Assembly: GCA_964642585.1 (NCBI GenBank) | Contig: CAZXPB010000001.1 | Span: forward strand, 3,733-67,732 | DNA from: an uncultured Candidatus Saccharibacteria bacterium | GTDB lineage: Bacteria; Patescibacteriota; Doudnabacteria; UBA920 | Direction: 5' to 3' | DNA: 64,000 nucleotides | Shown: piece after piece, positions 2,219 to 62,024 of the stretch | Layout of the letters: each line of letters opens with the position of its first letter | Position numbering within the stretch: position 1 is the first letter of the stretch | Program-made: the position numbers and the translations under genes | Notes under the pieces: generated by a model | The model's input: only the letters and a program-made list of their open reading frames with translations | Database searches by the model: none | What the model was told of the DNA's origin: nothing

Positions 2219-5200
2219 TTATGCTAGAGGAAGAGTCTGTTTGCGAAGGTTTTCTTCAGCAATATCAGCGTTAAAGCCAGTTCCAGCAGGAATTAGCTTA
2301 CCGATGATCACATTTTCCTTCAAACCTCTTAAATAGTCAGTCTTTCCAGTTACAGCCGCCTCAATTAGAACACGAGTTGTTTCTTGGAAAGATGCCGCCG
2401 CTAGAAAGCTTTCAGTAGATAGAGATATCTTAGTAATACCCATTAGAAGTTGTTCCGCTTCAATTAGATTTCGGCCTTCACCTTCAAGGAGTTCATTCAT
2501 TTCTTGCATCTTGGACTTATCTATCATATCACCTGGTGCAAAGTCTGAATCACCACCATTTACTACGCGCATCTTAGAGAACATTTGACGAGCAATAATT
2601 TCTACGTGCTTGTCGTGAATTTGTTGTCCTTGAGAAACGTAGATATCTTGAACTTCTTTTACCAAATATTTCTGAGCCGCTTCTACACCTTGTAGTTCTA
2701 ATACTTGATTTGGATTTAAGTTTCCTTCAGTAAGTGGTTGACCAGGGTAAACTAAATCACCATCTTTAACTGTTAGAGAGAAACCGCGAGGAATTACATA
2801 TTCTACTAATTCATCACCTTCATGGATAAGTTTAATTTGGTTTTCTTCAACTTTCGCAATGCCAGCCGCTTGTGCTTTTACTAAAGTACCAGCTTCATCT
2901 GTGTAAAGTGCATCCCCTACTGCAGTATGTGTACCATCTTTAATGATTGTCTGCGCGCCAGAAGGGAGACTCAGAATTTCAGAAGTAACATTTTCTCCTT
3001 CAATACGAACGATTTGTTCACGAGTTGGAGCAATAGTAATAGAAACTTTTCCTGCAATTTCAGATACAGCGGCCATACCTTTTGGTTCGCGTGCTTCAAA
3101 TAATTCTTCTACACGAGGAAGTCCTTGAGTAATATCACTTACAGAAGCAGATCCACCAGTGTGAAAAGTACGCATAGTAAGCTGTGTTCCCGGTTCACCA
3201 ATCGCTTGTGCCGCTACAATTCCTACAGCTGCACCAAGGTCAACCATTTTGTTGAAACCAAGGTCATAACCGTAACATAGACGACAGATACCACGAACTA
3301 GTTTACATTTTAGTACTGAACGGGATTTCACTTCTGTAATTCCACTTGCAGCAATTTGAGTAGCTGTTAATTCATCGATACCTTGATTACGCTTTACGAA
3401 AACTGTGCCATCTTCTGCTTTTACGTCTACTGCTGCTACACGGCCGAATAAACGGTTTTCAAAAGATTGATTCATCATTTCACTTTCTGCGAGTGTAATT
3501 GCATCATAATCTTTAGTACCACAATCTTCGGCGTTAATAACAACATCTTGGGCAACGTCAACAAGACGACGAGTTAAGTACCCAGCGTCAGCAGTACGAA
3601 GCGCAGTGTCTGACATACCTTTTCGAGAACCATGAGTTGAGATGAAATATTCTAACACACCGATTCCTTCTTTAAAGGAACCACGAACAGGAAGTTCAAT
3701 AGTACGACCGCCAGGGTTTACCACCAAACCTTTTAGACCAGACATTTGAGTAATCTGTGAGAAGGAACCACGAGCACCGCTAGACACGAAGTAGTTTACG
3801 CTTGAGTGAGGCAGTACAGTACCAACCACATCCTTAGCAATTTTTTCAGAAGCATCTGCCCAAATTTCTACAACACGGCCATAGCGTTCATCTTCGGTAA
3901 GCAAACCTTCAAGGAATTGTTCTTGAGTTGCTTGTACTTCTTTATCAGCAGCATCAAGCAAAGTGTATTTGGTATCTGGAACTGTTAAGTCATCCATACC
4001 CCAAGATAGTCCAGATTGCTTCATGTAGTAGAACCCGGTACGCTTAATTTCATCAATTAGTTCTGCAGTGCGTTCTGAACCAAACAAACGATACGCTTCA
4101 CGAAGAAGTTGCTGTAATTTCTTTTTATCAAAAGCATCGTTGCGGTATCCCATTTCTTTTGGAACAATCTTGTTGAAGATTAAACGACCAACGGATGTTT
4201 CTACTAGCTCAGTACTTTCGTTACCAATACGCACTTTAATTTGCGCTTGAATATGTACATGTTTGTTGTTGTAAGCCATGATCGCTTCTTGACTATCGGT
4301 AAACACTTTGCCTTCACCCTTCAAGCCTTCACGAATTTTTGTAATATAGTAACAACCTACCACAGCATCTTTGTCAGGAGTCATAACTGGTTGACCAGAA
4401 GCAGGCTTCAGCAAGTTGTGAGAAGATACCATGATTTCTTTAGCTTCTTTTTGCGCCGCTTCAGTCAGTGGGACGTGAACAGCCATCTGGTCACCATCAA
4501 AGTCAGCGTTAAACGCTGCACAAACCATTGGGTGAAGTTGAATTGCTTTACCTTCAATAAGCACCGGTTGAAAGGCCTGGAAACCAAGTCTGTGCAAGGT
4601 AGGAGCGCGATTTAGAAGCACATAGTGATCTTTAGTTACTTCTTCAAGAATATCCCACACTTCTGTTCGGCTTTGTTCAATAAGTCGACTAGCTGAGCGA
4701 ACATTGTGAGCATACTCACGAGAAATTAATTTAGAAATTACAAACGGCTTGAAAAGTTCCAAAGCCATTGCTTTTGGAAGTCCACATTGATGCAGCTTCA
4801 AATTTGGTCCCACCACAATTACAGAACGACCAGAATAGTCTACACGCTTACCAAGCAAGTTTTGACGGAAACGACCTTGCTTCCCCTTAAGCATGTCTGC
4901 TAAAGAACGAAGCTTGCGCTTTTGTCCTGTGCTAGCCGTAACTTCTTTGCCATGGCGAACAGAGTTGTCGATTAAAGCATCTACCGCTTCTTGCAGCATA
5001 CGCTTTTCATTACGAGTAATAACTTCTGGTGATTTAATTTCCAAAAGTTTCTTTAGACGATTGTTTCGGTTAATAACACGGCGGTACAAATCGTTCAAAT
5101 CAGATGCCGCAAAACGACCACCATCAAGTTGCACCATCGGACGAAGGTCTGGTGGAATAACTGGTAAGTGAGTAATTAACATCCATTCTGGACGAAGTCC

Positions 5201-15147: not shown

Positions 15148-16464
15148 ATGCTTACTACTTTAAAATTACTTATTAAAATGGTTGTACCGAAATTTTTGTT
15201 TCGCTTAGCTCAACCTATTTACCACGGACTTGTGGCACAAATTGCGAGTATCTATTTTGGCGCGCCCAGCACAAAACTTTTTGTTATTGGTGTCACTGGA
15301 ACAGCAGGCAAATCTACTACCGTAATGATGCTTGCAAAAATTTTAAATACTGACGGGAAGAAAACTGGATACATTACCACAGCTGGATCCTCCAATGGTG
15401 AAGACAGTAGAGTAAATAAACACGGCCTGTCTATGCCTGGTGGATGGATGTTACAAAAGCAATTAAGCGAAATGGTTTTGAAAGGTTGTAAATTTGCTAT
15501 TGTTGAATGCACTTCTGAAGGCTTAGCGCAGAACAGGCATAAAGGAATTCAATTTCAAGGTGCGTTATTTACGAACCTATCCCCTGCTCACATTGACAGT
15601 CATGGTAGTTTTGAAAATTACAGAAACGCGAAAGGAAAACTTTTTTCTAGCCTTACCCAAACTCCAGAAAGTTTTATTGGTGTAAATTTAGATGACCCAA
15701 ACAAAAATTATTTTCTATCTTTTTTGGCAAACAAAAAGTTTGGAGTTAGTATGCGGGAAGATTTAACTAAGCCTGAGAGTTTAGAAACTTTCATTGCTGA
15801 AAATATTTCTGTTTCTGACAAAATAGATTTTGATGTTGCTACAAATAAAGAAACCACGCATATTAGTTTTCAGATGTTCGGCACTTTCAATGTTGCCAAC
15901 GCGCTCTTAGCAATCGGCGCTGCAAAAATAGTTGGCACAAATTTCGCAACATCGGCAAAAGCTTTCAATAGTTTAAATTCAATCCCAGGGCGGATGGAAA
16001 CCATACAAGCTAAAAATGGTGCAACGGTCATTGTAGATTACGCCCCGGAACCCGCAGCGATGGAAAGCTCCCTGCGTGCCGTACAGATGCTTAGTCATAA
16101 AAAAATAATTCATGTGTTTGGCTCCACTGGCGGACACCGCGATGTTTCAAAACGATTTACTTTTGGAGAAATCTCAGCAAAATTTGCCGATACTATTATC
16201 ATCACCAACGATGATGTTTATGACTCAAATCCTGAAGAAATAGCAAAAAATATTGAGGAAGGTATTGGGCTCCAAGAAAATGCAAAAGTGACCACAGTGC
16301 ATTTGATTCTAGATCGCAAAGAAGCGATTAAAAAAGCATTGGAAATTGCCGGATCAGAAGATATCGTGTTAATTACCGGCAAAGGATCTGAGCAATTCCT
16401 AATTTTACCAGGAAACAAGAGAATCCATTGGGACGATCGAAAAGTAGTAAAAGAATTATTATGA
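15148..16464 (+). CDS. Mur ligase family protein (MurE-like UDP-MurNAc-peptide ligase homologue)
   Basis: P-loop VIGVTGTAGKSTT; C-terminal ...GKGSEQFLILPGNKRIHWDDRKVVKELL like MurE. N-terminal domain short. Confidence 0.75.
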   Translation: MLTTLKLLIKMVVPKFLFRLAQPIYHGLVAQIASIYFGAPSTKLFVIGVTGTAGKSTTVMMLAKILNTDGKKTGYITTAGSSNGEDSRVNKHGLSMPGGWMLQKQLSEMVLKGCKFAIVECTSEGLAQNRHKGIQFQGALFTNLSPAHIDSHGSFENYRNAKGKLFSSLTQTPESFIGVNLDDPNKNYFLSFLANKKFGVSMREDLTKPESLETFIAENISVSDKIDFDVATNKETTHISFQMFGTFNVANALLAIGAAKIVGTNFATSAKAFNSLNSIPGRMETIQAKNGATVIVDYAPEPAAMESSLRAVQMLSHKKIIHVFGSTGGHRDVSKRFTFGEISAKFADTIIITNDDVYDSNPEEIAKNIEEGIGLQENAKVTTVHLILDRKEAIKKALEIAGSEDIVLITGKGSEQFLILPGNKRIHWDDRKVVKELL

Positions 16465-16847
16465 TCTTATTTATTAACACCAGTGGTTTTGGAAACTTAC
16501 AATTTGTTTTAACCAACGGCACTGTAGTCAAACAGTTTGCAAAAGAAATTGCGTTCAACGAAAATTTTAAGACTAACGCTTTCTTAGAAATTTTCTTAAA
16601 GCAATCAAAAGTAACTCCGAGGGATCTGCAAAAAATAATTGTTTGTAGCGGGCCTGGGTCTTTCACTGGCATTCGCGTTGGAGTCAGCTTAGCTCAAGCC
16701 TTAGGATTTGCTCTACAAATCCCAGTAGTGGCTGTGGCGAAATCTAAAGTCCCAGAAGATGTGCGAAAACTTACGAAGATTAGTGGGGGCAAATCTCTAA
16801 CTCTGAATTATGGCCAAAAGCCAAACATAACTAAATCTAAAAAATAG
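16461..16847 (+). CDS. tsaB: tRNA t6A biosynthesis protein TsaB (YeaZ-like), short form
   Basis: MILFINTSG...CSGPGSFTGIRVGVSLAQALGFAL motif. ATGA overlap with the Mur ligase stop; the ORF-track start at 16428 is an extension. Confidence 0.75.
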   Translation: MILFINTSGFGNLQFVLTNGTVVKQFAKEIAFNENFKTNAFLEIFLKQSKVTPRDLQKIIVCSGPGSFTGIRVGVSLAQALGFALQIPVVAVAKSKVPEDVRKLTKISGGKSLTLNYGQKPNITKSKK

Positions 16848-30056: not shown

Positions 30057-30452
30057 ATGCGAAAGATTAAAATCAGGCTAAGTCAAGCAGAAAACTACGC
30101 AACTGAAATAGCTCAAACCCTAAAAGGCGGTGAAGTTTTGGCTTTAATTGGAGAGCTTGGAAGTGGTAAAACTACCTTCACAAAAGCTTTAGGAAAAGCT
30201 TTGGGAATCAAGAGAAATATTCCCAGTCCAACTTTTGTGATGATGCAAGAATTTAAGACCAAACGAGGCTTGATCTTATATCATCTTGATTTGTACCGCA
30301 CTAAAAATTTTACCGAAGTGAAAAGTTTGGGAATCACAGAATGGTGGGGTCATCCTAAAACAGTAACAGTTTTAGAGTGGGCGGATAAAATTCAAGATCA
30401 CTTACCGAAAAAGACAATTTTTATATATTTAACAAGGGATAATGATTTATAA
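30057..30452 (+). CDS. tsaE: tRNA t6A biosynthesis ATPase TsaE (YjeE)
   Basis: GELGSGKTTFTKAL P-loop and SPTFVMMQEF motif. Confidence 0.85.
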   Translation: MRKIKIRLSQAENYATEIAQTLKGGEVLALIGELGSGKTTFTKALGKALGIKRNIPSPTFVMMQEFKTKRGLILYHLDLYRTKNFTEVKSLGITEWWGHPKTVTVLEWADKIQDHLPKKTIFIYLTRDNDL

Positions 30453-34731: not shown

Positions 34732-35817
34732 TTAAGCTTCTTCTTGTTGAGCGCTTGGGCTTAATGTTACATGTTGCCCCACCATTTCTAATGGATGGGT
34801 TGTAGTAATAAAGGTTTGAAATTTACCTTGAAGGTATTTTAATAAGAAAGTTCTACGAGTATCATCTAGTTCTGAGAGGACATCATCAAGTAGTAGAATT
34901 GGTGTATTTCCCTCTTTTGTTAAGTATTCAAGTTCCAGAATTTTTAGAGCTAAGACCTGGCTTCTCTGCTCGCCTCTGGAGGAAAAAGAGACTAAGTACA
35001 ACCCTTCGCTCTGTAAGTCAAAATCATCGCGGTGTGGACCAATTAGAGATGTCCCAGCGCCAATCTCACGGCTACCTAGCTTCTCTAAAGCTGCTGCAAA
35101 CTCAGCTTTTATCTCTTCTAAGGTATCACCAGGGATAGTTTCATAAATTACTTCGATTGTCCTGTGGAATTGTGAAATTCCTGCATACACCTCAGATATA
35201 TTTTGGTTTAAATAATTAATGAAATGCTTTCTTTCAAAAATAATTTGAGAGCCAATTTCTACCAATTGTTCATTCCACGAAGGTAGTGCCTCTGAAGAAG
35301 ATTTGCCAGCGCGAACATCTGCCAGTAATCTATTTTTTTGAGTTAGTATTTTTTTATATTGGGCTAAATTATCTAGGTACTCAATACTTTTTTGCGAAAG
35401 TACCATATTTAAATATTTGCGACGGGCTTCTGGTTGATGTGTAAATAGATCTACATCTGTTGGTTCGAAAATTACAACTTTTAAATATCCTTGTGCCTCT
35501 TTACGTTTCTTCTTAACTCCATCAATCTTAAAGTTAGCATAAATCCGATCTCTTTTTTCCAGAAATACCTCTAGGGTGTGTTCGGATTCATTACTTTCTA
35601 AATCTACTTTAATTTCAGCATTAGTGGTTCCTTGTAAAAAAATAAATTCTGCATCATCACGGAAAGATTTAAATAATGAACTAAAATAAACTGATTCAAG
35701 TAAATTAGTTTTTCCTACAGCATTTGGTCCTGAAAGAACCACCATATCACTAGTAATAGCTAAATCCAGACTAGGATAATTGCGGATATTCTTAATTTGT
35801 AAGTTTGTAATTTTCAT
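34732..35817 (-). CDS. recF: DNA replication and repair protein RecF
   Basis: GPNAVGKTNLLES Walker A, SMC-like signature; lies downstream of dnaN. Confidence 0.93.
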   Translation of the reverse strand: MKITNLQIKNIRNYPSLDLAITSDMVVLSGPNAVGKTNLLESVYFSSLFKSFRDDAEFIFLQGTTNAEIKVDLESNESEHTLEVFLEKRDRIYANFKIDGVKKKRKEAQGYLKVVIFEPTDVDLFTHQPEARRKYLNMVLSQKSIEYLDNLAQYKKILTQKNRLLADVRAGKSSSEALPSWNEQLVEIGSQIIFERKHFINYLNQNISEVYAGISQFHRTIEVIYETIPGDTLEEIKAEFAAALEKLGSREIGAGTSLIGPHRDDFDLQSEGLYLVSFSSRGEQRSQVLALKILELEYLTKEGNTPILLLDDVLSELDDTRRTFLLKYLQGKFQTFITTTHPLEMVGQHVTLSPSAQQEEA

Positions 35818-35824
35818 AAATTGA

Positions 35825-36919
35825 TTATAGCCGAATTGGCATTATTAAGTATAGGTAATTTTTATTATCTTCTGGCCTGAATACAACTGGATTCGTATCA
35901 TCAATTACATGCATATTAATTTGCTCTGATTCGGTGTTTAATAAAAGATCTAAAATATATCTGTAATTCATTATAACTGATCCAGATATACCAGTAATTG
36001 TACAAGGAATATCAATAATACTTTCCCCCACCCCTTGAGATGAGGATTTAGTTTGGAGAATCTGTTTTTCAACATCAAAATTTAAATTGATACTCCCTAC
36101 ACCCTTAGAAAAAATTCCACTTGTCTTTAATGCTGAAAGTAAATCTTTATGTTGTAATGTAATTACAGTTCCTTTTTCAGTAGGAATAATTTGAGAATAC
36201 TCAGGATATTGTCCATCAATTAATCTAGTGACTAGGTATGTATCATTAACAGAAACCGCTATTTGAGTTTCACTAATATCTAATTGTGTTGATTCAGTAG
36301 AATTTAACAGTAATCGGGATAGTTCTAAAATACTGCGATGAGGAATAATTACAGACTTATTAAAATCAGAGTTAATATTTAAAATATACTCAGATAATCG
36401 ATATCTATCTGTCGCTGTAACTGTTAACTTTCCAGAATCAAATTTAAATAAAACCCCAGAAAGTTCAGGTTGGGTTTCACTAGTACTTGCTGAAAAAACT
36501 ACTGAATCGATTGTACTCTTTAAGATATTTGAAGGGATAGAGATACTTTGAGAATCTTCAATTACTGGGATAATCGGAAATTCCTCAACTGGTATGTGTT
36601 TGATTTTAGTTTGGTATCTTGTTGTAGAAACTTTAGTTTCAACTTCACCTACTTCAATTGTAATGTTTTCGTTTGGGAGATTATTAACTAAATCAAGAAG
36701 AACTTTTGCTGTTAGACAAACACCGCCTTCAACTTCAATCTTACAACGAATGACTGTACTAATTCCCATTTCTAAATTCGTTGCTGATATCTTTAACTGA
36801 CCATTCTCGGTGTTAAGTAAAACATTGTTTAAAACAGGAAGTGTTTGACTAGAACCGACTACTCTAGATACTTGAGCTAATCCATTCTTTAAATTTTCTT
36901 GTGTACAAATAATTTTCAT
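35825..36919 (-). CDS. dnaN: DNA polymerase III beta sliding clamp
   Basis: 364 aa, three-domain clamp architecture; dnaA-dnaN-recF order. Confidence 0.93.
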   Translation of the reverse strand: MKIICTQENLKNGLAQVSRVVGSSQTLPVLNNVLLNTENGQLKISATNLEMGISTVIRCKIEVEGGVCLTAKVLLDLVNNLPNENITIEVGEVETKVSTTRYQTKIKHIPVEEFPIIPVIEDSQSISIPSNILKSTIDSVVFSASTSETQPELSGVLFKFDSGKLTVTATDRYRLSEYILNINSDFNKSVIIPHRSILELSRLLLNSTESTQLDISETQIAVSVNDTYLVTRLIDGQYPEYSQIIPTEKGTVITLQHKDLLSALKTSGIFSKGVGSINLNFDVEKQILQTKSSSQGVGESIIDIPCTITGISGSVIMNYRYILDLLLNTESEQINMHVIDDTNPVVFRPEDNKNYLYLIMPIRL

Positions 36920-37199
36920 TAGTATTGGTATTTATTTATTTAAAATTTAGAAATACATAATAATAAAGGGGGTGGAAAAGCGGATAACTTATTTATTTAG
37001 GTGAAACTAGTAATATTTTAGTTAAATTGTATCAAATTACGGTGTGGACTAACGTACTAATTATGAGTGATAAAGATTGGATAAAGTTTTTATAAACTCT
37101 GGATAAACTATTTATAAATTATTTACCTGTGTAAAACTATCTACTTATCCAGAGTTAAATATTTTTATCCATACCGATATACACAACTTAACTACTTAC
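36920..37199. promoter_or_regulatory. oriC candidate (dnaA-dnaN intergenic): clustered DnaA boxes plus AT-rich unwinding region
   Basis: TTATCCAGA, TTATCCATA, ctTTATCCA(rc), gTTTATCCAg(rc), TTATCCGC(rc) within 280 bp; AT-only stretch at 36935-36975. Confidence 0.7.
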
Positions 37200-38585
37200 T
37201 TATCCATAGATTTTTTCAAGAATTAAATCTATTTCCTGTTTAATATTATCTCCGCTAGACACCGCTGTTTCTATTTTTTCAACACCATGCATTACTGTAG
37301 TATGGTCCCTTCCCCCAAAGAAGTCACCAATTGCCGGGAATGAGCTATTCAATTCTTTCCTAGCAATATACATAGCGGCTTGTCTAGGTTTAACATACTC
37401 TTTTCGACGGGATTGTTTTAATAAATCTTCTACTGTAATCCCATAGAAATTTGCTACACTCTCCGCAATCTTAGTAAATGTAACTGCTTTTTTCTTAGAT
37501 TTAACAATATTAGCTAGGATAACTTTCGCTTGATCCAAAGTTAATGGGTTATTTTCAATTTGTTGATAAATAATTAACTTATTTAAAGCGCCTTCTAATT
37601 CTCTAATATTATTTACAACATTTTCCGCAATAAACTCAGTAACCTCTTTTGAAAACTGAATATTTCGTTTTCCCATTTTAGTTTGTAAGATTGCAATTCT
37701 AGTTTCAAGAGTTGGGGCACTAATATCCACCACCATTCCCCACTCAAATCTAGATACTAATCGTTGCTCAATAGCTGGAATATCTTTAGGAAGTCTATCA
37801 GCAGTTAAAATTATTTGTTTTCCTTTATCTCTTAATTCATTAAAAGTGTGGAAAAATACTTCTTGAGTTTGTTCTTTACCAGCAATAAATTGTACATCGT
37901 CTACAAGTAGCATATCTACATTTCGGTAAAGATTTTTAAACCCTTCCATCCTCTTTTGTCCTAAGGCAGCCACATAGTCGTTAGTAAACTTCTCACTAGT
38001 GACATAAAGAACTTTAAGGTTTGGATTAGAAGATAAATAACGGTTACCAATTGCGTGCATTAAATGAGTTTTACCAAGACCAACACCACCGTAAATAAAC
38101 AAAGGGTTGTATTGAGTGCCTGGATTTTTTGAAACTGCGGTACTTGCTGCATAAGCCAGTTCGTTATTTTGACCGACTACAAAAGTATCAAAAGTATATT
38201 GATTATTTAAGTTACTGCTATTTGGCGAAGTTTTTTGATTATTATCCTTTACTTTTAGATTTTCTTCTTCTGGGATTGCGTTAATATCTGATTTTTTATC
38301 TGAATCCGCTTTTGTTTGGCTGGTTGAGTCCGCATTTTTGAAGTGCCCAACATAGTATTTAATAACTTTTACCTCAGGGGCGATGGATTTTAACGCTTTT
38401 AGGAGGTTTGTGTGGTATTTACTAGAAATCCAGTCTCTTGTGAAGTTACTTGGTACCCCAACTACAATATAATCGTCGTTTTTCTCAATAATTCCAGTGT
38501 TTTTAAACCAAGTACCAAAGGTCATTTTACTTAATGAAACCTCTAAATCACCTATAATTGCTTGCCATAGTTGTTGGTTTGTCAT
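37200..38585 (-). CDS. dnaA: chromosomal replication initiator DnaA
   Basis: GGVGLGKTHLMHAIGN Walker A, box VII, C-terminal DNA-binding domain; -10 TAGAAT 8 nt before ATG. Confidence 0.97.
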   Translation of the reverse strand: MTNQQLWQAIIGDLEVSLSKMTFGTWFKNTGIIEKNDDYIVVGVPSNFTRDWISSKYHTNLLKALKSIAPEVKVIKYYVGHFKNADSTSQTKADSDKKSDINAIPEEENLKVKDNNQKTSPNSSNLNNQYTFDTFVVGQNNELAYAASTAVSKNPGTQYNPLFIYGGVGLGKTHLMHAIGNRYLSSNPNLKVLYVTSEKFTNDYVAALGQKRMEGFKNLYRNVDMLLVDDVQFIAGKEQTQEVFFHTFNELRDKGKQIILTADRLPKDIPAIEQRLVSRFEWGMVVDISAPTLETRIAILQTKMGKRNIQFSKEVTEFIAENVVNNIRELEGALNKLIIYQQIENNPLTLDQAKVILANIVKSKKKAVTFTKIAESVANFYGITVEDLLKQSRRKEYVKPRQAAMYIARKELNSSFPAIGDFFGGRDHTTVMHGVEKIETAVSSGDNIKQEIDLILEKIYG

Positions 38586-38760
38586 AATAATTCATTCTAA
38601 CTTAGAAGTTATCAACATGTAAAATGGGTATTTTTCCCTCATAAATAAGCCAAATTTATTTAACTCTGTTCATAACTTGTTGATAACCTGTGCTTAATAG
38701 CTAAATCCTTATAATATACATCATCCTCTACTTTATAACCCTGTGGAAAAGCGGATAATC
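38586..38760. promoter_or_regulatory. second DnaA-box cluster upstream of dnaA
   Basis: Inverted pair of TTATCAACA boxes (38611 and rc at ~38678) and TTATCCGC (rc); tggaaaagcggataa motif shared with 36971-36988. Confidence 0.6.
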
Positions 38761-38761
38761 A

Positions 38762-38790
38762 TTGACTATTTTTTTTGAATTCTTTATAAT
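38762..38790 (+). promoter_or_regulatory. consensus sigma70 promoter TTGACT-17-TATAAT of rpmH, 6 nt before ATG (leaderless)
   Basis: Read directly. Confidence 0.6.
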
Positions 38791-38796
38791 TACCCA

Positions 38797-38931
38797 ATGA
38801 AAAGAACTTACCAACCGAAAGTAAAAAAGCGTAAGCGAGTCCACGGGTTTATGGCTAGAATGCAAACTCGAACTGGTAGAGCAGTATTAGCCCGTCGTAG
38901 ACTTAAAGGGCGAAAAAGCCTCACAGTATAG
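38797..38931 (+). CDS. rpmH: 50S ribosomal protein L34
   Basis: [44 protein letters not shown] (44 aa), below the ORF-track size cutoff; classic position next to rnpA. Confidence 0.93.
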
Positions 38932-38959
38932 TTTTTTAATATAAACCAACAGGAAATAT

Positions 38960-39295
38960 ATGCTTTCTCAAAAACACCGCCTCTCTAGGTCAGCTGACGT
39001 TAAACAAACAACAGCCCGAGGGCGGAGTTTTTTTAATCCATATTTTGTGATTAAATTTAGTGCCAATCCCGAAACTACTTTGATTACAGTAATCGTTTCA
39101 GTAAAGGTTTCAAAAAAAGCTGTGATTAGAAATAAAATTAAACGAATTGTTCGTGATGAACTGCGTAAGCAAATCACTTCCTTAAAAAATGGCAATTACG
39201 CTTTCATAATCAAACCTAGCGTTTTAAAGATTGATAGTAAACAACTAAGAGAACAAATTAACTTTAGTTTAAAGAATGCAAAAATTATTAATTAA
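38960..39295 (+). CDS. rnpA: ribonuclease P protein component
   Basis: 111 aa basic protein with RNR-like motif; rpmH-rnpA-yidD-yidC order. Confidence 0.9.
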   Translation: MLSQKHRLSRSADVKQTTARGRSFFNPYFVIKFSANPETTLITVIVSVKVSKKAVIRNKIKRIVRDELRKQITSLKNGNYAFIIKPSVLKIDSKQLREQINFSLKNAKIIN

Positions 39296-39515
39296 TATAA
39301 TTAAGCTATATCAAAAAACACTATCCCCGGATCATGGTTGGTTTAGAGCTAGATGGCCAAATGGTTATTGTAGATTTCACCCAACTTGTAGCCAATATGC
39401 TGTCGAAGCAATTCAAACGCACGGTAACATAAAAGGAATATTTCTTGGGGGTAAAAGAATAATAAAATGTAACCCTTTTTCTAAGCCTGGCGTAGATCCG
39501 GTTCCTAAACTATAA
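39276..39515 (+). CDS. yidD: membrane protein insertion efficiency factor YidD
   Basis: CRFHPTCSQYAVEAIQTHG signature. Confidence 0.9.
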   Translation: MQKLLINIIKLYQKTLSPDHGWFRARWPNGYCRFHPTCSQYAVEAIQTHGNIKGIFLGGKRIIKCNPFSKPGVDPVPKL

Positions 39516-39536
39516 TAAAAGAACTAAACAAAACAT

Positions 39537-40241
39537 ATGATTGAACTATATAACACTATTATTTACGAACCAATTTTAAACCTTTTGGTTTGGCTATACA
39601 ACACAGTCCCAGGACATGATATTGGAATTGTAATTATTCTGGTCACAATTGTGATTCGTTTAATTCTTGCTCCTTTTATGCATAAATCTTTGAAGAGCCA
39701 AAAATCAATGAGCGCTCTTCAACCAAAGATCAAAGAACTTAGAGAAACCCATAAAGAAGACCAACAAGAACAAGCTAAAGCTATGATGGCTCTGTATAAA
39801 GAACATAATGTTAGCCCATTCTCTTCTTGTCTACCGTTATTAATTCAACTCCCAATTCTAATTGCTTTATACCAAGTTTTTGCTAAGGCTTTAAAAGGAA
39901 ATTTAGATGGTTTGTATGCTTTCATTTCTAACCCTGGAATGTTAAATCCAAAGTTCCTTGGACTTATTGATTTAGCAAATCCAAATATTATTTTTGCAGT
40001 TATTGCTGGGTTGGTGCAGTTCTGGCAATCTTGGATGGTAACAAAATGGCAAGGCACTGGTGCTAACGATGCAACTGCAAAAGCTTTGAACATTCAAATG
40101 CTTTATATCTTGCCACTTGTATCAGTATTTATCGCTTGGAGACTTCCTGCCGGGCTACCTCTTTACTGGATTGTAACCACCTTATTTGCTGTTCTCCAAC
40201 AGTACTACATTAACCGTACTCACAAAGTAGAAATTAAATAA
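39537..40241 (+). CDS. yidC: membrane protein insertase YidC (short Gram-positive-type)
   Basis: 234 aa, 5 TM, conserved YidC/Oxa1 core. Confidence 0.9.
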   Translation: MIELYNTIIYEPILNLLVWLYNTVPGHDIGIVIILVTIVIRLILAPFMHKSLKSQKSMSALQPKIKELRETHKEDQQEQAKAMMALYKEHNVSPFSSCLPLLIQLPILIALYQVFAKALKGNLDGLYAFISNPGMLNPKFLGLIDLANPNIIFAVIAGLVQFWQSWMVTKWQGTGANDATAKALNIQMLYILPLVSVFIAWRLPAGLPLYWIVTTLFAVLQQYYINRTHKVEIK

Positions 40242-40255
40242 TTAAATTTAATCTC

Positions 40256-40735
40256 ATGGCAGACTATCAATCAATAGAATATATTCAAAAGACAATCCAA
40301 GCTCTTTTAGAGAGTATGGATATTTCCGCTCGGATTGAATATGAAGATAGTCTCGCTTCAGGTTTAGTATTTAATATCCGCAGTCGTGATGCAAAAATGT
40401 TAATAGGTAGACAAGGTGCAACACTCTACGCTTTAGAACATTTAGTACATTCAATTGTTTCCCGAAATTTGTCTCAAACTAAATCCGAAACTGATAATCG
40501 CATTTTCTTTTCAATCGATGTAGATGACTATAAACGCAATCGGCAGTATCAGATTAAACAGTTAGTGAAAGATAGTGTTCTAGAGATGAAACGCACGGGT
40601 CAACCTATAGACTTGCCAGATATGCCAAAGCCAGAGCGAAAATTTGTTCATATGTATATTCAAGAACAATTCCCACACATTACAACAGCTAGTGTTGGTG
40701 ATGAACCCCGCCGATATATCAAACTTACTTTGTAA
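40256..40735 (+). CDS. jag: Jag/KhpB-like RNA-binding protein (KH + R3H)
   Basis: C-terminal R3H-like region; canonical position after yidC. Confidence 0.8.
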   Translation: MADYQSIEYIQKTIQALLESMDISARIEYEDSLASGLVFNIRSRDAKMLIGRQGATLYALEHLVHSIVSRNLSQTKSETDNRIFFSIDVDDYKRNRQYQIKQLVKDSVLEMKRTGQPIDLPDMPKPERKFVHMYIQEQFPHITTASVGDEPRRYIKLTL

Positions 40736-45781: not shown

Positions 45782-46324
45782 CTAATTAATGTTTGTATAG
45801 ACGGCTGTGACATCTTCATCGTCTTCTAGGGCTTCAAATAGTTTGTGAGCTTTTTCTAGGTCCTCATCGGTTAAATCTAGTGGGGTGTTACTCTCAAGTT
45901 CTCCTGCCTCGTTTTTCTTAAATTGCCATGCCACGCTGCCCTGTGATCCAAGGTTGCCATTGTTCTTCATAAAGATGGTTTTGACTTTTTGCACAGTACG
46001 GTTTTTATTGTCAGTAATAGCCTCAATCAGAAAAGCAGCTCCTCCTGGGCCATATCCTTCGTAAATCACTTCTTCAAGGGCAGCAGAGCCATCTTTCCCT
46101 AATCCCTTCTTAATAGCGCGTTCTATGTTGTCGTTCGGCATAGATAGCGCGCGAGCCTTATCAATTTCCACACGAAGCCTAAAGTTTAGAGTGGGGTCGC
46201 CATTGTTACCCTCTTTGGCAGCTACAGAGATTTTTTTAGAAAGTTTACCAAAAATAGCTCCTTTTTTGGCATCGGCAGCACCTTTGGCTCGTTTAATTGT
46301 TGACCATTTAGAATGTCCTGACAT
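45782..46324 (-). CDS. yebC: YebC/PmpR-family transcriptional regulator (short)
   Basis: [39 protein letters not shown]... family signature. Confidence 0.9.
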
Positions 46325-46337
46325 TTTGTTCTATAAA

Positions 46338-47003
46338 TTACTTGAATGATAGGAGAAAAGTGATCTCCCCTTTTAGGGCAGAGCGTGGTTTCAAATTAGC
46401 AAGGATTTCGCTAGGAGTACCCCGTAAATATTCCTCATGCATTTTAGTAAGCTCTCGAGCTACGACACAATTTACTTCCGGAAAGCTCTTGCCTATATAT
46501 TCTAATGTCTTTGTAATTCTTTGGGGAGACTCGTAAGCTATCAAAGTACTTTGGGTTGTCTCCGCCATTTTTACTAGTTCGCAGACCTTATGCTCTGTCT
46601 TTGGAAAAAATCCTACAAAAATATATCTGTCAGTGGGAAGTCCTGATGCAGAAAGAGCGGTAGTCGCAGCGTTAGCTCCAGGAAGTGCAACAACTTCTAA
46701 ATTAACTTCGCGAGCTGCGCGTACCAAACGAAATCCTGGATCGGAAATTGCTGGAGTGCCTGCATCGCTCACTAGACATGCAGTTTCATTTTGCAAACGA
46801 TCTAAATATTTTTTCAAAACAAGACGTTCGTTGTGATCTGCAAATTGTACCACCGGCTTTTTTGGTAATTTCAAAAGTTGTAGAAGTTTGTGAGTTGTCG
46901 CTGGATTTTCGGCAATGATAAAATCGCAGTTCTCCAGAGCAAGTTTACTTCGCTCGGTAATGTCTCCAAGGTTACCAAGTGGTGTTGGAACAATATATAA
47001 CAT
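46338..47003 (-). CDS. rsmI: 16S rRNA (cytidine1402-2'-O)-methyltransferase RsmI
   Basis: MLYIVPTPLGNLGDIT... tetrapyrrole-methylase-fold signature. Confidence 0.88.
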   Translation of the reverse strand: MLYIVPTPLGNLGDITERSKLALENCDFIIAENPATTHKLLQLLKLPKKPVVQFADHNERLVLKKYLDRLQNETACLVSDAGTPAISDPGFRLVRAAREVNLEVVALPGANAATTALSASGLPTDRYIFVGFFPKTEHKVCELVKMAETTQSTLIAYESPQRITKTLEYIGKSFPEVNCVVARELTKMHEEYLRGTPSEILANLKPRSALKGEITFLLSFK

Positions 47004-47297: not shown

Positions 47298-47335
47298 ATG
47301 AATTTTGTTTAAATTTAAAGCCCAAATGGGCTTGC

Positions 47336-47412
47336 TGGTGCGCGTGCATGGATTCGAACCATGGACCACAAAGGTATAAGCTTTGCGCTCTAACCAACTG
47401 AGCTACACGCGC
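47336..47412 (-). tRNA. tRNA-Ile with UAU anticodon (reads AUA), CCA encoded
   Basis: GCGCGTG/CACGCGC acceptor stem, D-arm GCTC-AGTTGGTTA-GAGC, anticodon stem CAAAG/CTTTG with loop CTTATAC (U33, anticodon TAT, A37), T-arm CATGG-TTCGAAT-CCATG, discriminator A, CCA. Confidence 0.85.
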
Positions 47413-47521
47413 ATATTGAAAGATTACTTAGGTATTATAGATAACAATCGTTTTTGGGGCAATAAAAAAGAACCGTCTTTGTAAAGACGGTCCTGTAGGT
47501 TAAACTCTGAGATTAGTTCAA

Positions 47522-47983
47522 CTAGTCTTTCGGTTTCGTTAAGAAAATCCCCATTTTCTCATTTTTCCAAACTATAGTGCAAGGTAAGCCAGTCTTTTTT
47601 AGACTTCTTTTTACACTTCCCTTTATGGTATGGACGATGAGATAATTGTTCGTGGGGTTATTAACACCGATTAAGGAATTAGGTATTGATATCCATCGCT
47701 CTCCGAACAATTGGCTTTCTTGGAAATTCGTAAGGAATATTTTTTGATTTTCGCTCCAGCAATCTAGAGACAAAATTCTGTTCCAAAATTCCTGCGGAAT
47801 CACCTCATAAATAATGTCGCAGTCGCGTCGGTTCGTTGGATTAATTTTCCGTACGACCAACCTTACTTCGAGCTTTTCGTCATCTTTAATCCTAGCTCTT
47901 AATCGCATCTTGGTCAGCAGTTCTTGAACTTGCTCATCACGATTGAGCTCAATTTGCAGCTTCTCCATTGTTACTTTACGCAC
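47522..47983 (-). CDS. hypothetical protein
   Basis: GGAGG 8 nt upstream of GTG at 47983 (alternative ATG at 47968); the ORF-track start at 48046 is likely an extension. No recognised motif. Confidence 0.5.
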   Translation of the reverse strand: MRKVTMEKLQIELNRDEQVQELLTKMRLRARIKDDEKLEVRLVVRKINPTNRRDCDIIYEVIPQEFWNRILSLDCWSENQKIFLTNFQESQLFGERWISIPNSLIGVNNPTNNYLIVHTIKGSVKRSLKKTGLPCTIVWKNEKMGIFLTKPKD

Positions 47984-48117
47984 CTTTGTTTCCTCCCCTT
48001 TTGCATTAGAACACATCACTATACTACAAAAAGCAATAACTGTCAAGGGAAGTTTTAAGTTAAAAAAGCTGTGTTGATGGAATCAACACAGCTTTAATTA
48101 TTTTTTATATATGGAGC

Positions 48118-59475: not shown

Positions 59476-61779
59476 TTAAGAAGAAGTAGTTGAGGTGCAA
59501 ATTGTCTCAAGCCGTGAATAATGATCTTCATCAGCCAACTCAATAAATTTTAGTACATTTAGCGCAATGGGTTTTGCTTCGAGCATTGATGCAGATATAC
59601 CGCGAGAGAAATCTTGACCGTGAGAATATTCGTGCAAAAACTTCACAATAAAATCTCCAGTTCCTTTCATTCTATCATCGTTACTCGTTACGAATCTACT
59701 CATTACAATACTATTAAATTCTTCAGTTGTTGCACATGACCACTTAAACCCAGCAAAATATTCTAAGATCTTTCGAGCTATATTCGCAACAAGTGGTTCG
59801 TCGAGCTGTCGTGTACCCTTAGCGAATTGATAAAGTCTACAGAATAAATACTGATACTCACTTTTATATTCTTTTAGTAAGTTAGGCAGATTTTCTATTT
59901 TGACTTCTTGGACTTCGCTTTCTTTATCGTGAGTAATCAGAAACATATTAGACTCATCTTTGTATTGTCTACTCATAAGCCAATCCCGAATAAGATTAAA
60001 GAAATCGAAGTTGTGAGTAAGTACTATTAATTGACCCACATCCTTTAAATGTCTTTTTATTAAACCCGCTGTGCGGAACAAGAATATACTGTCTTGACTG
60101 TCGACTGGATCATCTAAAACAACAAGGCAATTAGCTTTATCGCTATCATTTTCTTCCAGTTTAATTAAGAAATAAACTAAAGCTAAAACACTTTCCTCTC
60201 CCTCGCTAAGATGTTTGGCATCTTTTCCTCTTCTTTTCAGAATGTAAGATATTTCTCCGTCATCTGACTCATTTACCTCCAGATAGATAAGTGATTCCCC
60301 GAAAAATTCTTTTAATAGTGAATTAATTTTATCCACCGCATCAGATGCGTTTGTCAAAGACGCTTTTAAGACTTTAATATCTAGGAGTGTTTTGTTTCGT
60401 TCTTCTTTAGCTTTTTCTATTTCTGCCGTTAGTCTAATTACCTCACTTTTATTTTTAAAGTAGTTTTTGTTCTCTAGAATAGAAGCAATTGTATGAAGTT
60501 CAATACTTTCTGCAGCCGCTTTCACCTCTTCTGATATAGATTGCACTCTAATATTGTGCTCACTAACTATCTTTTCTATTGTTTTAAGAGATTCATTCGC
60601 TTTTTCTATATCTTCTCTGGGATATTCAATTGGTTCGTGCTTCTTCTCGTGATTGTGTAAATCAACCTGCTTATCTTTCAACTGCGTTATGATTAGGTTG
60701 ATTTGGTTTTGTATATTTTGAACGTGTTGTGATAATTCTTTCTTAGCAGCAGCACATTCTTTGCTTGGCTCGGGAAACAAAAGAGATGGTTCTAGTTCTG
60801 GAAGTTTCTCATTATTATCATTTCCAGCTAACAAATTAATAGTTTCTTGTATTTGTAATTTCGCTTTTTGTAGTTCGTCGGTAAAGAAACCACCTAACTG
60901 TACTAATAGATCATCTGGTAAAACGCCTTTGCAAAATTGGCATTCTTTTAACCCTCTTTGCTTATGTATTTTGTAACCAGCTTCTATCCAATCCTTTAAC
61001 TCACCATCTTCCTTTAATCCTTCAATGTTTTGAAAAGTAATTGAAGTGTTTAATAAACCATTGGCACTATCGAACAATTCTTCAAAATCCTCAATAGTGT
61101 TAAATTTAATATTTATCTCGGTCTTCTCATTTTTTATTACTTCTTTTTTAGAATCAACTTCGCTAGGTTCAGCAATAATAAGTGAGTTTAAGTTAGCTTC
61201 TGTGATAACCCCAGTTTCTAAACGTTTGTCTACCTTTAATTTATTATAACTTCGTCCGTAATATGTATCATCCCCTAATGGTGTATTGGTAAATTGTTTA
61301 GGAACTTCTCGGCCAGCTTGAGTTAATACATCGTCGGGATTAGGTATTTGTTTAAGTTGTTCTTCGAGTGTTTGTATTGTATTTTGATTAGTCTGGTAGT
61401 TTGATTCGTGTTGTTCAATTTGTTGTTGGGCTGTTACATTCTCTTTACCTAATATTACAATCTTTTTTGCTTGGGAATCCTCAAAGGATAAATTTTCTGT
61501 AATAAAGTCTTCGTTAAATACCTTAACGTTAAGTCCATTAGAAGTTATGTCTGTTTGCTTAATTGGAGATGCGTCTGTTTCTATGGAAAATTCAACTGAT
61601 TTCAAATCATCGATGTGAACATCCTTTCTTTCAAGAAAATTAAAGATTCTGGATATAGTAGTTTTTCCAGATCCGTTCCACCCATAAATTAGACCGTACT
61701 TCTTAAAGTCGTCCCCTATCCATTTAAACGCATCGAATGCGTCAATGTGTGTTATCTGTTTTATCTTCTTTATTAGCAT
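59476..61779 (-). CDS. RloC/PrrC-like ABC-type ATPase with coiled-coil CxxC (zinc-hook-like) insertion and C-terminal putative anticodon-nuclease domain
   Basis: Walker A GWNGSGKTT; ~350-aa coiled-coil insert containing CQFCKG; Walker B/D-loop LVVLDDPVDS; H-loop LTHN. C-terminal ARKILEYF...(≈40 aa)...H fits the R-x3-E...H anticodon-nuclease triad pattern (recalled from memory). Start taken at first ATG (MLIKKIK); GTG at 61809 is an alternative. Confidence 0.65.
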   Translation of the reverse strand: MLIKKIKQITHIDAFDAFKWIGDDFKKYGLIYGWNGSGKTTISRIFNFLERKDVHIDDLKSVEFSIETDASPIKQTDITSNGLNVKVFNEDFITENLSFEDSQAKKIVILGKENVTAQQQIEQHESNYQTNQNTIQTLEEQLKQIPNPDDVLTQAGREVPKQFTNTPLGDDTYYGRSYNKLKVDKRLETGVITEANLNSLIIAEPSEVDSKKEVIKNEKTEINIKFNTIEDFEELFDSANGLLNTSITFQNIEGLKEDGELKDWIEAGYKIHKQRGLKECQFCKGVLPDDLLVQLGGFFTDELQKAKLQIQETINLLAGNDNNEKLPELEPSLLFPEPSKECAAAKKELSQHVQNIQNQINLIITQLKDKQVDLHNHEKKHEPIEYPREDIEKANESLKTIEKIVSEHNIRVQSISEEVKAAAESIELHTIASILENKNYFKNKSEVIRLTAEIEKAKEERNKTLLDIKVLKASLTNASDAVDKINSLLKEFFGESLIYLEVNESDDGEISYILKRRGKDAKHLSEGEESVLALVYFLIKLEENDSDKANCLVVLDDPVDSQDSIFLFRTAGLIKRHLKDVGQLIVLTHNFDFFNLIRDWLMSRQYKDESNMFLITHDKESEVQEVKIENLPNLLKEYKSEYQYLFCRLYQFAKGTRQLDEPLVANIARKILEYFAGFKWSCATTEEFNSIVMSRFVTSNDDRMKGTGDFIVKFLHEYSHGQDFSRGISASMLEAKPIALNVLKFIELADEDHYSRLETICTSTTSS

Positions 61780-61818
61780 AATTGAGCTTATCTTAGCAGT
61801 TTTGTTCACTTATTAGAA

Positions 61819-61835: not shown

Positions 61836-62024
61836 CAATTAAATGTCCTAACCCCACCTAAGACGTGGGTATGGAAACTAAAACCAATGAAGAATACTGA
61901 ACCCTGCGTTCAGCTATCTTCATTGGTCATGTCTGGAAACGGGCATGGGATCTCACGATCCGGCTGGCGTGGGGCTTTGTGTTAAAGAACCCATGTCGGC
62001 TCTAACTAATTAAGATTGTCGATC
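61836..62024 (+). promoter_or_regulatory. GC-rich highly structured 5' leader (~190 nt): candidate riboswitch or cis-regulatory RNA, class unassigned
   Basis: Long irregular helix ccaatgaagaata[ctgaac-cctgc-gttcag]ctatcttcattgg; ggatc-tcac-gatcc; catggg...cccatg closing helix. GC content far above the flanking DNA. Confidence 0.4.

Follow-up and report, generated by a model that had tools for sequence, protein, structure and literature searches.

How is the isoleucine codon AUA read in a bacterium whose transfer RNA (tRNA) gene for this codon already specifies the anticodon UAU? In bacteria, TilS and lysidine, the nucleoside into which this enzyme converts C34 of tRNA-Ile2(CAU), are treated as near-universal and essential, and the question is raised by a tRNA-Ile gene in a stretch of 64,000 nucleotides (hereafter the window; positions 3,733 to 67,732 of contig CAZXPB010000001.1) from an uncultured Candidatus Saccharibacteria bacterium. 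An earlier reading of these letters, made without database searches (the sequence-only reading), had proposed that the UAU anticodon is encoded in the DNA, that such an anticodon is rare, and that it implies either the loss of tilS or an unusual modification. The interpretation that we favor, with a probability of roughly 70%, is that this gene encodes a functional and chromosomally fixed AUA decoder of a bacterium of the Candidate Phyla Radiation (CPR, or Patescibacteria), which would have arisen from tRNA-Ile2(CAU) together with the loss of tilS.

The window gene is a tRNA with a DNA-encoded UAU anticodon

The features on which the argument is built are the following:

47336..47412, minus strand: tRNA-Ile(UAU) gene of 77 nt with encoded CCA, seen by ARAGORN, by Rfam RF00005, in a second assembly (L001) and by covariation
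47376..47378, minus strand: anticodon TAT (U34 A35 U36) in the loop C-U-UAU-A-C, read from the sequence (ATA on the plus strand)

Of the three tRNA genes that ARAGORN called in the window, one is a tRNA-Ile with the anticodon tat and has its ends at exactly 47336 and 47412; it lies on the minus strand, about which the sequence-only reading was silent. The Rfam tRNA model RF00005 matched this gene over the full model (1-71) with 73.8 bits (gathering score 29, E=2.9e-14). In RNA sense the molecule reads GCGCGUG-UA-GCUC-AGUUGGUUA-GAGC-G-CAAAG-CUUAUAC-CUUUG-UGGUC-CAUGG-UUCGAAU-CCAUG-CACGCGC-A-CCA, the gene being, as the reverse complement, GCGCGTG TA GCTC AGTTGGTTA GAGC G CAAAG CTTATAC CTTTG TGGTC CATGG TTCGAAT CCATG CACGCGC A CCA. 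The clean cloverleaf that had been described from the letters alone, with its 7-bp acceptor, is all there: the helices of 7, 4, 5 and 5 bp are perfect, the discriminator is A73, the CCA is encoded and the anticodon loop reads C32-U33-U34-A35-U36-A37-C38. The anticodon falls at position 35 in ARAGORN numbering because of one extra base in the D-loop. Position 34 of the gene is a T and not C34, the substrate of TilS, which sets it apart from canonical tRNA-Ile2(CAU), and the same T34-A35-T36, with U33 and A37 in a loop of seven nucleotides, is present in 11 independently located CPR homologues.

To these homologues we added sequences from metagenomes, collected with the pattern TAGCTCAGYTGGTTAGAGC-N5-GCTYATACC-N5-GGTCC, in which position 34 was free to be C or T. 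The resulting alignment holds 79 distinct tat tRNAs, namely that of the window and 78 others (10 GTDB homologues and 68 metagenomic sequences), and all of them fit one standard cloverleaf, in which 99.8% of the cells pair. Compensatory changes were found for 16 of the 21 pairs, among them every pair of the acceptor and the anticodon stem. None of 500 shuffles reached these values and controls in which the register was slid paired at most 50% of the cells, which upholds the register of the anticodon as first read. The loop CUUAUA is invariant throughout, this being independent evidence only for the window and the 10 GTDB homologues, since the scan pattern had pre-set the loop in the 68 metagenomic sequences. 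Because, over the 79 sequences, covariation in the stems goes with a constant loop, the tat tRNAs are, to judge from this pattern, a functional gene family under purifying selection and not a decaying copy. The gene in the window is thus confirmed as a genuine tRNA gene whose UAU anticodon is encoded in the DNA.

Among the same 79 sequences, 46, all metagenomic, start with C1-G72 (CCGCCC.../...GGGCGG) instead of G1-C72; these are mostly without an encoded CCA and usually lie in the order smpB-ftsH-tRNA. No smpB was found in the named GTDB loci examined, so that these tRNAs have no link to a named lineage.

AUA is in use and stands for isoleucine

AUA accounts for 210 of the 18,279 codons in 49 open reading frames (ORFs) of the window (11.5 per 1000) and for 15% of the isoleucine codons, being rare in rpoB/rpoC and common in one probably acquired gene. 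The GyrA alignments contain 236 AUA codons of 14 lineages that carry the UAU tRNA, and these stand opposite I, V, L and M with frequencies of 0.58, 0.18, 0.12 and 0.03, respectively. The codons AUU and AUC face isoleucine in 57-61% of cases, from which AUA is indistinguishable, and AUG faces methionine with a frequency of 0.57. Because AUA aligns with isoleucine just as AUU and AUC do, it is read as isoleucine, and a reassignment to methionine or another amino acid was rejected, as only 3% of the AUA codons in these alignments are opposite methionine. A codon in use at 11.5 per 1000 and aligned with isoleucine therefore needs a decoder. The median usage of AUA is 22 per 1000 codons in the UAU lineages against 14 in the tilS lineages, with widely overlapping ranges.

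In CPR relatives, the UAU tRNA fills the tRNA-Ile2 slot where tilS is missing

The loss of tilS that the UAU anticodon had been taken to imply was followed up in the window and in its relatives. No TilS was found in the window when ORFs of at least 100 aa were compared with NCBIfam or Pfam, or when TilS of E. coli and of CPR served as tblastn queries, and ARAGORN detected no tRNA(CAU) in the 64 kb; tilS and tRNA-Ile2(CAU) were likewise missing from the ~7 kb that could be added beyond the window.

In other CPR genomes the two genes have a conserved place. tilS lies directly upstream of ftsH in 14 CPR loci (found by tblastn and confirmed by TIGR02432), none of which carries a tat tRNA, and wherever a locus that keeps tilS-ftsH has a neighboring tRNA, its anticodon is CAU. 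The order is rpsA-tilS-ftsH-tRNA(CAT), all on one strand, in a 'Saccharibacteria' chromosome (L045, OZ246411.1), and the CAT tRNAs of three further loci (L017, L026 and L031) are identical to E. coli ileY over a run of 35 bases that takes in the anticodon arm and the variable loop and reaches into the T-arm, so that they represent canonical tRNA-Ile2. The tat tRNA is found in five CPR genomes more distant from the window, in three of which (L019, L043 and L078) the order is rpsA-ftsH-tRNA(TAT), rpsA and ftsH being at most ~100 bp apart, and in two (L050 and L058) ftsH-tRNA(TAT). Altogether, 21 CPR loci contain ftsH, and TAT is present in 0/14 with tilS and in 5/7 without it (Fisher p ~0.001 by our own arithmetic, which ignores shared ancestry). 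Given that it occupies, in these relatives, the same slot downstream of ftsH, the UAU tRNA appears to be the positional counterpart of tRNA-Ile2(CAU), and since it fills this slot exactly where tilS is missing, the loss of tilS and the change of C34 to U would be coupled. The predicted link between the UAU tRNA and the loss of tilS was thus borne out in CPR relatives. On the GyrA tree the loci with tilS group in a clade of their own, and TAT occurs in at least three separate lineages.

The metagenomes extend the same picture. At least 120 contigs matched the tRNA pattern, and 80 matching loci were examined (77 distinct sequences), with T34 in 79 and C34 in 1, a ratio that overstates the exclusivity of T34 because the pattern was built from TAT tRNAs with C38 fixed. 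ftsH adjoins the tRNA in 48 of the 80 loci, and no match to TilS was found in their 480 kb; in the 21 loci with a complete ftsH and at least 1.2 kb upstream of it, the upstream neighbor is usually smpB and never tilS. Taken together, the named and the metagenomic loci suggest that whole CPR branches have swapped TilS and lysidine for a UAU tRNA.

Some further observations were made at these loci. CPR TilS comes in two forms, one of 328 aa with the N-terminal lysidine-synthetase domain only (L017:5861-6847) and one of 452 aa with the TilS C-terminal domain TIGR02433 (L045:4658-6016). In locus L020, an ORF of 232 aa without a Pfam match (L020:4378-5076, minus strand) lies between rpsA and ftsH, in the tilS slot of the relatives, and could be a remnant of tilS or a replacement gene; no tRNA was detected near it. 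In addition, five UAU contigs carry a type-II tRNA with a long variable arm and the loop UUACUAA, thus with the anticodon ACU (Ser, A34), at L087:4725-4814, L093:5601-5688, L106:10258-10345, L148:2667-2755 and L150:5948-6035, each back-to-back with a normal tRNA-Ser(GCU). Anticodons starting with A, except Arg-ACG, are very rare in bacteria (PMC4013482).

The tRNA is fixed beside gyrA in the clade of the window

The best 80 relatives of the window GyrA among GTDB species genomes are all metagenome-assembled genomes (MAGs) of Patescibacteria/CPR, the closest having 89% identity, the next four 70-74% and the remainder 54-61%. In L001, a second assembly from a near-identical strain, the tRNA is identical and has the same -10 region. 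The tat tRNA adjoins gyrA, in either orientation, in all of L002-L006 (GyrA identity 89-70%), and also in the metagenomic members L117 and L136. In a neighbor-joining tree of GyrA the clade of the window comprises these eight members, and TAT is present in every one of them. In this clade, as far as gene order tells, the UAU tRNA is one that has moved next to gyrA.

From the gene to a decoder of AUA

The features that bear on expression and maturation of the tRNA are these:

47434..47462, minus strand: sigma-70-type promoter TTGCCC-17 nt-TATAAT, 21 nt upstream of the tRNA 5' end (promoter scan, 10/12 matches)
47318..47333, minus strand: hairpin AAGCCC-AUUU-GGGCUU just past the CCA, a putative 3' processing or termination signal, read from the sequence and kept in L001
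38960..39295, plus strand: rnpA, the RNase P protein, accessory (Pfam Ribonuclease_P, 2.3e-18)
30057..30452, plus strand: tsaE, of the pathway for N6-threonylcarbamoyladenosine at position 37 (t6A37), accessory (Pfam TsaE, 2.9e-33)
16428..16847, plus strand: tsaB-like ORF of 139 aa, of the same pathway, accessory (Pfam TsaD-family match, 3e-14)

The tRNA would be transcribed from its own sigma-70-type promoter, which is a match to the consensus from which expression is predicted, and which immediately follows the preceding gene's terminator. In L001 a promoter TTGCAG-17-TATAAT is found at an equal distance from the tRNA, despite differing upstream DNA. RNase P would then remove a leader of ~10-20 nt, as expected from general tRNA biology, the CCA being already encoded. 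At the other end, the hairpin at 47318..47333, for which the terminator scan made no call, may serve as a signal for 3' processing or termination. A37, next to U36, would probably receive t6A by way of TsaB, TsaD and TsaE, a pathway of which two genes lie in the window.

As to charging, the identity elements of E. coli tRNA-Ile, defined for a type-1 isoleucyl-tRNA synthetase (IleRS), are A73, C4-G69, U12-A23, A37, A38 and C29-G41. The window tRNA has A73, C4-G69, U12-A23 and A37, and C4-G69 is kept in 60 of the 79 aligned UAU tRNAs. Position 38 is C in 9 of the 11 distinct UAU tRNAs (that of the window and 8 of the 10 derived from GTDB) and A in all four CAT tRNAs and in E. coli ileY, so that the change from A38 to C38 tracks that from C34 to U34. 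We hypothesize that C38 is a candidate tuning element against misreading of AUG. No ileS was found in the window, by profile scans of ORFs or by tblastn with E. coli IleS, nor in any UAU-bearing locus, and the IleS-like tblastn matches in the UAU loci L050 and L058 proved to be valyl-tRNA synthetase and were rejected as evidence for IleRS. The only CPR IleRS in the DNA examined, from an ftsH locus without tilS (L012), is of type 2: it has DUF5915 at its C-terminus and lacks a zinc finger, unlike E. coli IleRS. The tRNA would be charged by an IleRS tolerant of U34, either a type-1 enzyme with Arg at the position of E. coli W905 or, more probably, one of type 2 as in L012, and U34 would pair with the A of AUA, as its anticodon predicts. 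Its descent would have run from tRNA-Ile2(CAU) through the change of C34 to U, coupled to the loss of TilS, the tRNA coming to lie beside gyrA later, in the clade of the window.

Comparison with known tRNA-Ile(UAU) systems

In Mycoplasma mobile, tRNA-Ile(UAU) has an unmodified U34, IleRS is of type 1 with a Trp-to-Arg change, and AUG is discriminated by the ribosome (Taniguchi et al. 2013, PMC3575796). Its tRNA carries t6A37, which is needed for isoleucylation (PMC3575796). The window tRNA resembles that of M. mobile in being a DNA-encoded UAU decoder of AUA in a reduced genome, with A37 positioned for t6A, and in its supposed derivation from tRNA-Ile2(CAU), C changing to T before tilS was lost (Fig. 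4 model of PMC3575796), a model that the CPR synteny series appears to illustrate. It differs in belonging to Patescibacteria instead of Mollicutes, in the C38 loop signature and the ftsH linkage, both CPR-specific, and in the type of IleRS, which is type 1 in M. mobile and type 2 in L012, the sole CPR IleRS seen.

Bifidobacterium and Neorickettsia have no tilS, a tRNA-Ile(TAT) and an IleRS of the eukaryote-like type 2 (PMC3575796), and L012, which has no tilS beside ftsH and encodes IleRS2, is similar to them; these lineages, however, are unrelated to CPR, and none of the CPR loci examined showed IleRS2 together with the UAU tRNA, the link between the two being our inference. With the canonical tRNA-Ile2(CAU)/TilS system the CPR tRNAs share the meaning of AUA as isoleucine and the same ftsH slot (L045), from which they differ by T34, which is no substrate for TilS, by position 38, mostly C and not A, and by the absence of tilS at the UAU loci seen. 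The archaea Nanoarchaeum equitans and Korarchaeum cryptofilum read AUA with tRNA-Ile3(UAU) (PMC8450103). Archaeal and eukaryotic tRNA-Ile(UAU) are similar to the window tRNA in having an encoded UAU and no C34 conjugate, in small or derived genomes, but they belong to other domains, the eukaryotic tRNA contains an intron and is pseudouridylated, and what the archaea lost was TiaS and not TilS. Lactobacillus plantarum and L. casei also have bacterial chromosomes with an encoded UAU tRNA-Ile, but they keep tilS, and no CPR locus examined has both.

As for Bifidobacterium, Neorickettsia and the two archaea, decoding by tRNA-Ile(UAU) has been inferred for some haemoplasmas (PMC3575796; PMC8450103), and the published counts for bacteria stand at 9, 19 and 17 species or genomes (PMC3575796, PMC4013482 and PMC8450103), the last being the 17 bacterial genomes reported with tRNAscan-SE 2.0. 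Taniguchi et al. listed 371 unique TAT tDNAs of unknown origin in metagenomes (PMC3575796). Reviews up to 2025, and a TilS paper of that year, name only M. mobile as an exception (PMC11947777). The rarity claimed by the sequence-only reading therefore holds for the literature (9-19 species) and does not hold for this lineage, where the UAU anticodon is found throughout the clade and is abundant in metagenomes.

Alternative explanations

Several points weigh against the proposal that the UAU tRNA replaced tRNA-Ile2(CAU) and tilS in this genome. The DNA examined from the clade of the window contains no ftsH, so that the argument from a precise deletion of tilS draws on other CPR lineages. tilS and tRNA-Ile2(CAU) could sit elsewhere in the genome, as they do in L. 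plantarum and L. casei (PMC3575796). Two of the E. coli IleRS elements differ, position 38 of the window tRNA being C and pair 29-41 being A-U; the type-1 rules may not apply here. Besides ileS being absent from the window, the IleRS of L012 comes from a genome that need not be one with the UAU tRNA. To these the bias of the scan pattern toward T34 has to be added.

The explanation that survives best next to this proposal keeps the same tRNA and changes a single nucleoside: U34 would be modified so as to pair only with A, being a pseudouridine as in eukaryotic tRNA-Ile, a 5-substituted U as in haloarchaeal mutants, or a new nucleoside. In its favor, on E. coli ribosomes a bare U34 reads G as well as A (PMC3575796), and U34 of tRNA-Ile(UAU) is modified in eukaryotes and in archaeal mutants (PMC11947777; PMC3895270); the invariant CUUAUA with its near-constant C38 also fits the recognition site of an enzyme. 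However, neither the window nor the related loci show a candidate modification enzyme linked to the tRNA, U34 is unmodified in M. mobile, the only bacterial case analyzed (PMC3575796), and CPR genomes are strongly reduced, so that we regard such a modification as possible and still rather doubtful.

A second explanation is that the UAU tRNA is a redundant decoder of AUA in a genome that retains tilS and tRNA-Ile2(CAU) elsewhere, the intermediate stage proposed for L. plantarum and L. casei. Both AUA systems do occur together in some Firmicutes (PMC3575796), the part of this genome examined amounts to ~70 kb, and tilS is present in other CPR lineages. Yet the tat tRNA accompanies tilS in none of the 14 tilS loci, and the 80 metagenomic loci hold no TilS match; the five lineages with the UAU tRNA downstream of ftsH all lack tilS at its conserved place, and UAU is fixed across the GyrA clade down to 70% identity, for longer than an unstable intermediate would be expected to last. 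We therefore consider redundancy unlikely, and less probable than a modified U34.

Two other explanations have almost no probability left. Although phages often carry tRNAs for rare codons and a strain-variable cassette lies immediately upstream of the gene, its origin as a mobile or phage-derived tRNA brought in with that cassette is effectively refuted, since the tRNA is the same whether or not the cassette is there, is surrounded by core genes (gyrA, rsmI, yebC and ruvC), is syntenic across the clade, and has no close phage homologue, the best full-length phage matches being generic tRNAs with ~77% identity and the pattern matching 1 viral contig against at least 120 metagenome contigs. Likewise, a pseudo-tRNA such as a decayed CAU tRNA, a wrong anticodon register or a tRNA charged with another amino acid, which the missing A38 and C29-G41 and an isotype assigned from the anticodon alone might suggest, is rejected by the Rfam score of 73.8 bits, the perfect helices and the covariation around an invariant loop in 79 sequences, besides the presence of A73, C4-G69, U12-A23 and an own promoter and the alignment of AUA with isoleucine and not with methionine. 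The single viral contig with this tRNA architecture, L209 (IMGVR_UViG_3300028177_000001, 288 kb), is perhaps a fragment of a CPR genome wrongly classed as viral, or else a very large phage with the tRNA.

The replacement of tRNA-Ile2(CAU) by the UAU tRNA remains, then, the interpretation that we prefer. A broader version of it, in which whole branches of Patescibacteria including this genome are without TilS, having lost it several times from a tilS-ftsH-tRNA-Ile2 cluster, and in which AUG is discriminated by the invariant CUUAUA-C38 loop or by a new modification of U34, is put forward only tentatively and has the odds against it.

Chromosomal setting of the tRNA gene

One more feature separates the tRNA from gyrA in the window:

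47469..48046, minus strand: strain-variable gene cassette of ~580 bp between gyrA and the tRNA promoter, absent from L001

This cassette has its own promoter TTGACA-17-TATAGT (48046-48018), an ORF of ~150-174 aa ending at 47522, which gave no match against Pfam, NCBIfam and PADLOC, and a strong terminator (47494-47469). In the near-identical strain L001 gyrA is followed directly by the tRNA, without the cassette. By this comparison it is a strain-level indel beside the tRNA promoter, which sets the upstream boundary and is not part of the function of the tRNA.

The window contains rpoB/rpoC, uvrB, polA, the PBP1a gene, tyrS, ruvC, yebC, rsmI, gyrA, rpsA and htrA, as well as ruvA, murein genes, ruvB, tsaE, recF-dnaN-dnaA and rnpA-yidC-jag, and on this gene content and its GyrA relatives it is a Patescibacteria (CPR) chromosome around the replication origin, with ~38% GC. 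Contigs in the ENA metagenome assemblies ERZ15185093 and ERZ28614697 encode proteins of the window exactly, and the extension of ~7 kb on the rpoC side carries genes of unknown function; for the protein at the right end the recorded contigs are all below 1.4 kb, and one protein had no record. In the neighborhood of the origin (34732-40735) the strands are minus for recF-dnaN-dnaA and plus for rnpA-yidC-jag; the gap of ~370 bp between dnaA and rnpA probably holds rpmH, which was called in L001, and mnmE/mnmG, which follow jag in many bacteria, are not found at the jag of the window. Next to the tRNA, yebC (45782-46324, minus strand) encodes 180 aa against a profile of 245 positions and falls below the curated cut-off, and rsmI (46338-47003, minus strand) encodes 221 aa against 275 in the family model; as both have the same lengths in L001, their shortness probably reflects CPR streamlining rather than a frameshift.

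Farther away, a 777-aa AAA_13 ATPase (59476-61809, minus strand) matches the PADLOC candidate defence system PDC-S06 (E=7e-135), is rich in AUA (30 of its 68 isoleucine codons) and is adjoined by a LOOT RNA (Rfam RF03000, 71 bits) at 61845-61961 on the plus strand. L001 has at this place a cluster of tRNA genes (Gly, Phe, Val and Leu) and a LAGLIDADG ORF instead, and the stretch looks like a variable island.

Significance

The principle of a tRNA-Ile(UAU) is already known, and what is new here is the lineage, the scale and the synteny series; a search of an open-access library for tilS, lysidine or the AUA codon in CPR, Patescibacteria or Saccharibacteria returned nothing relevant, and publication elsewhere is possible. 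Specialists in tRNA may thus find the principle unsurprising and the apparent repeated loss of lysidine in a major radiation of interest. If large CPR clades do lack TilS, lysidine-free bacteria, so far a handful of species, would come to include a sizeable share of a major radiation, and if both the TilS-less branches and a new solution for AUG are true, CPR would be by far the largest lysidine-free group of bacteria. The series from tilS-ftsH-tRNA(CAU) to ftsH-tRNA(UAU) would in that case amount to several natural replicates of the transition proposed in 2013. In practical terms, pipelines for MAG completeness that expect Ile2(CAU) would mis-score such genomes, and antibacterials targeted at TilS would have no effect on such bacteria. 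For the biology of these organisms, the finding, if true, raises the question of how the ribosomes of ultra-small bacteria keep isoleucine off AUG.

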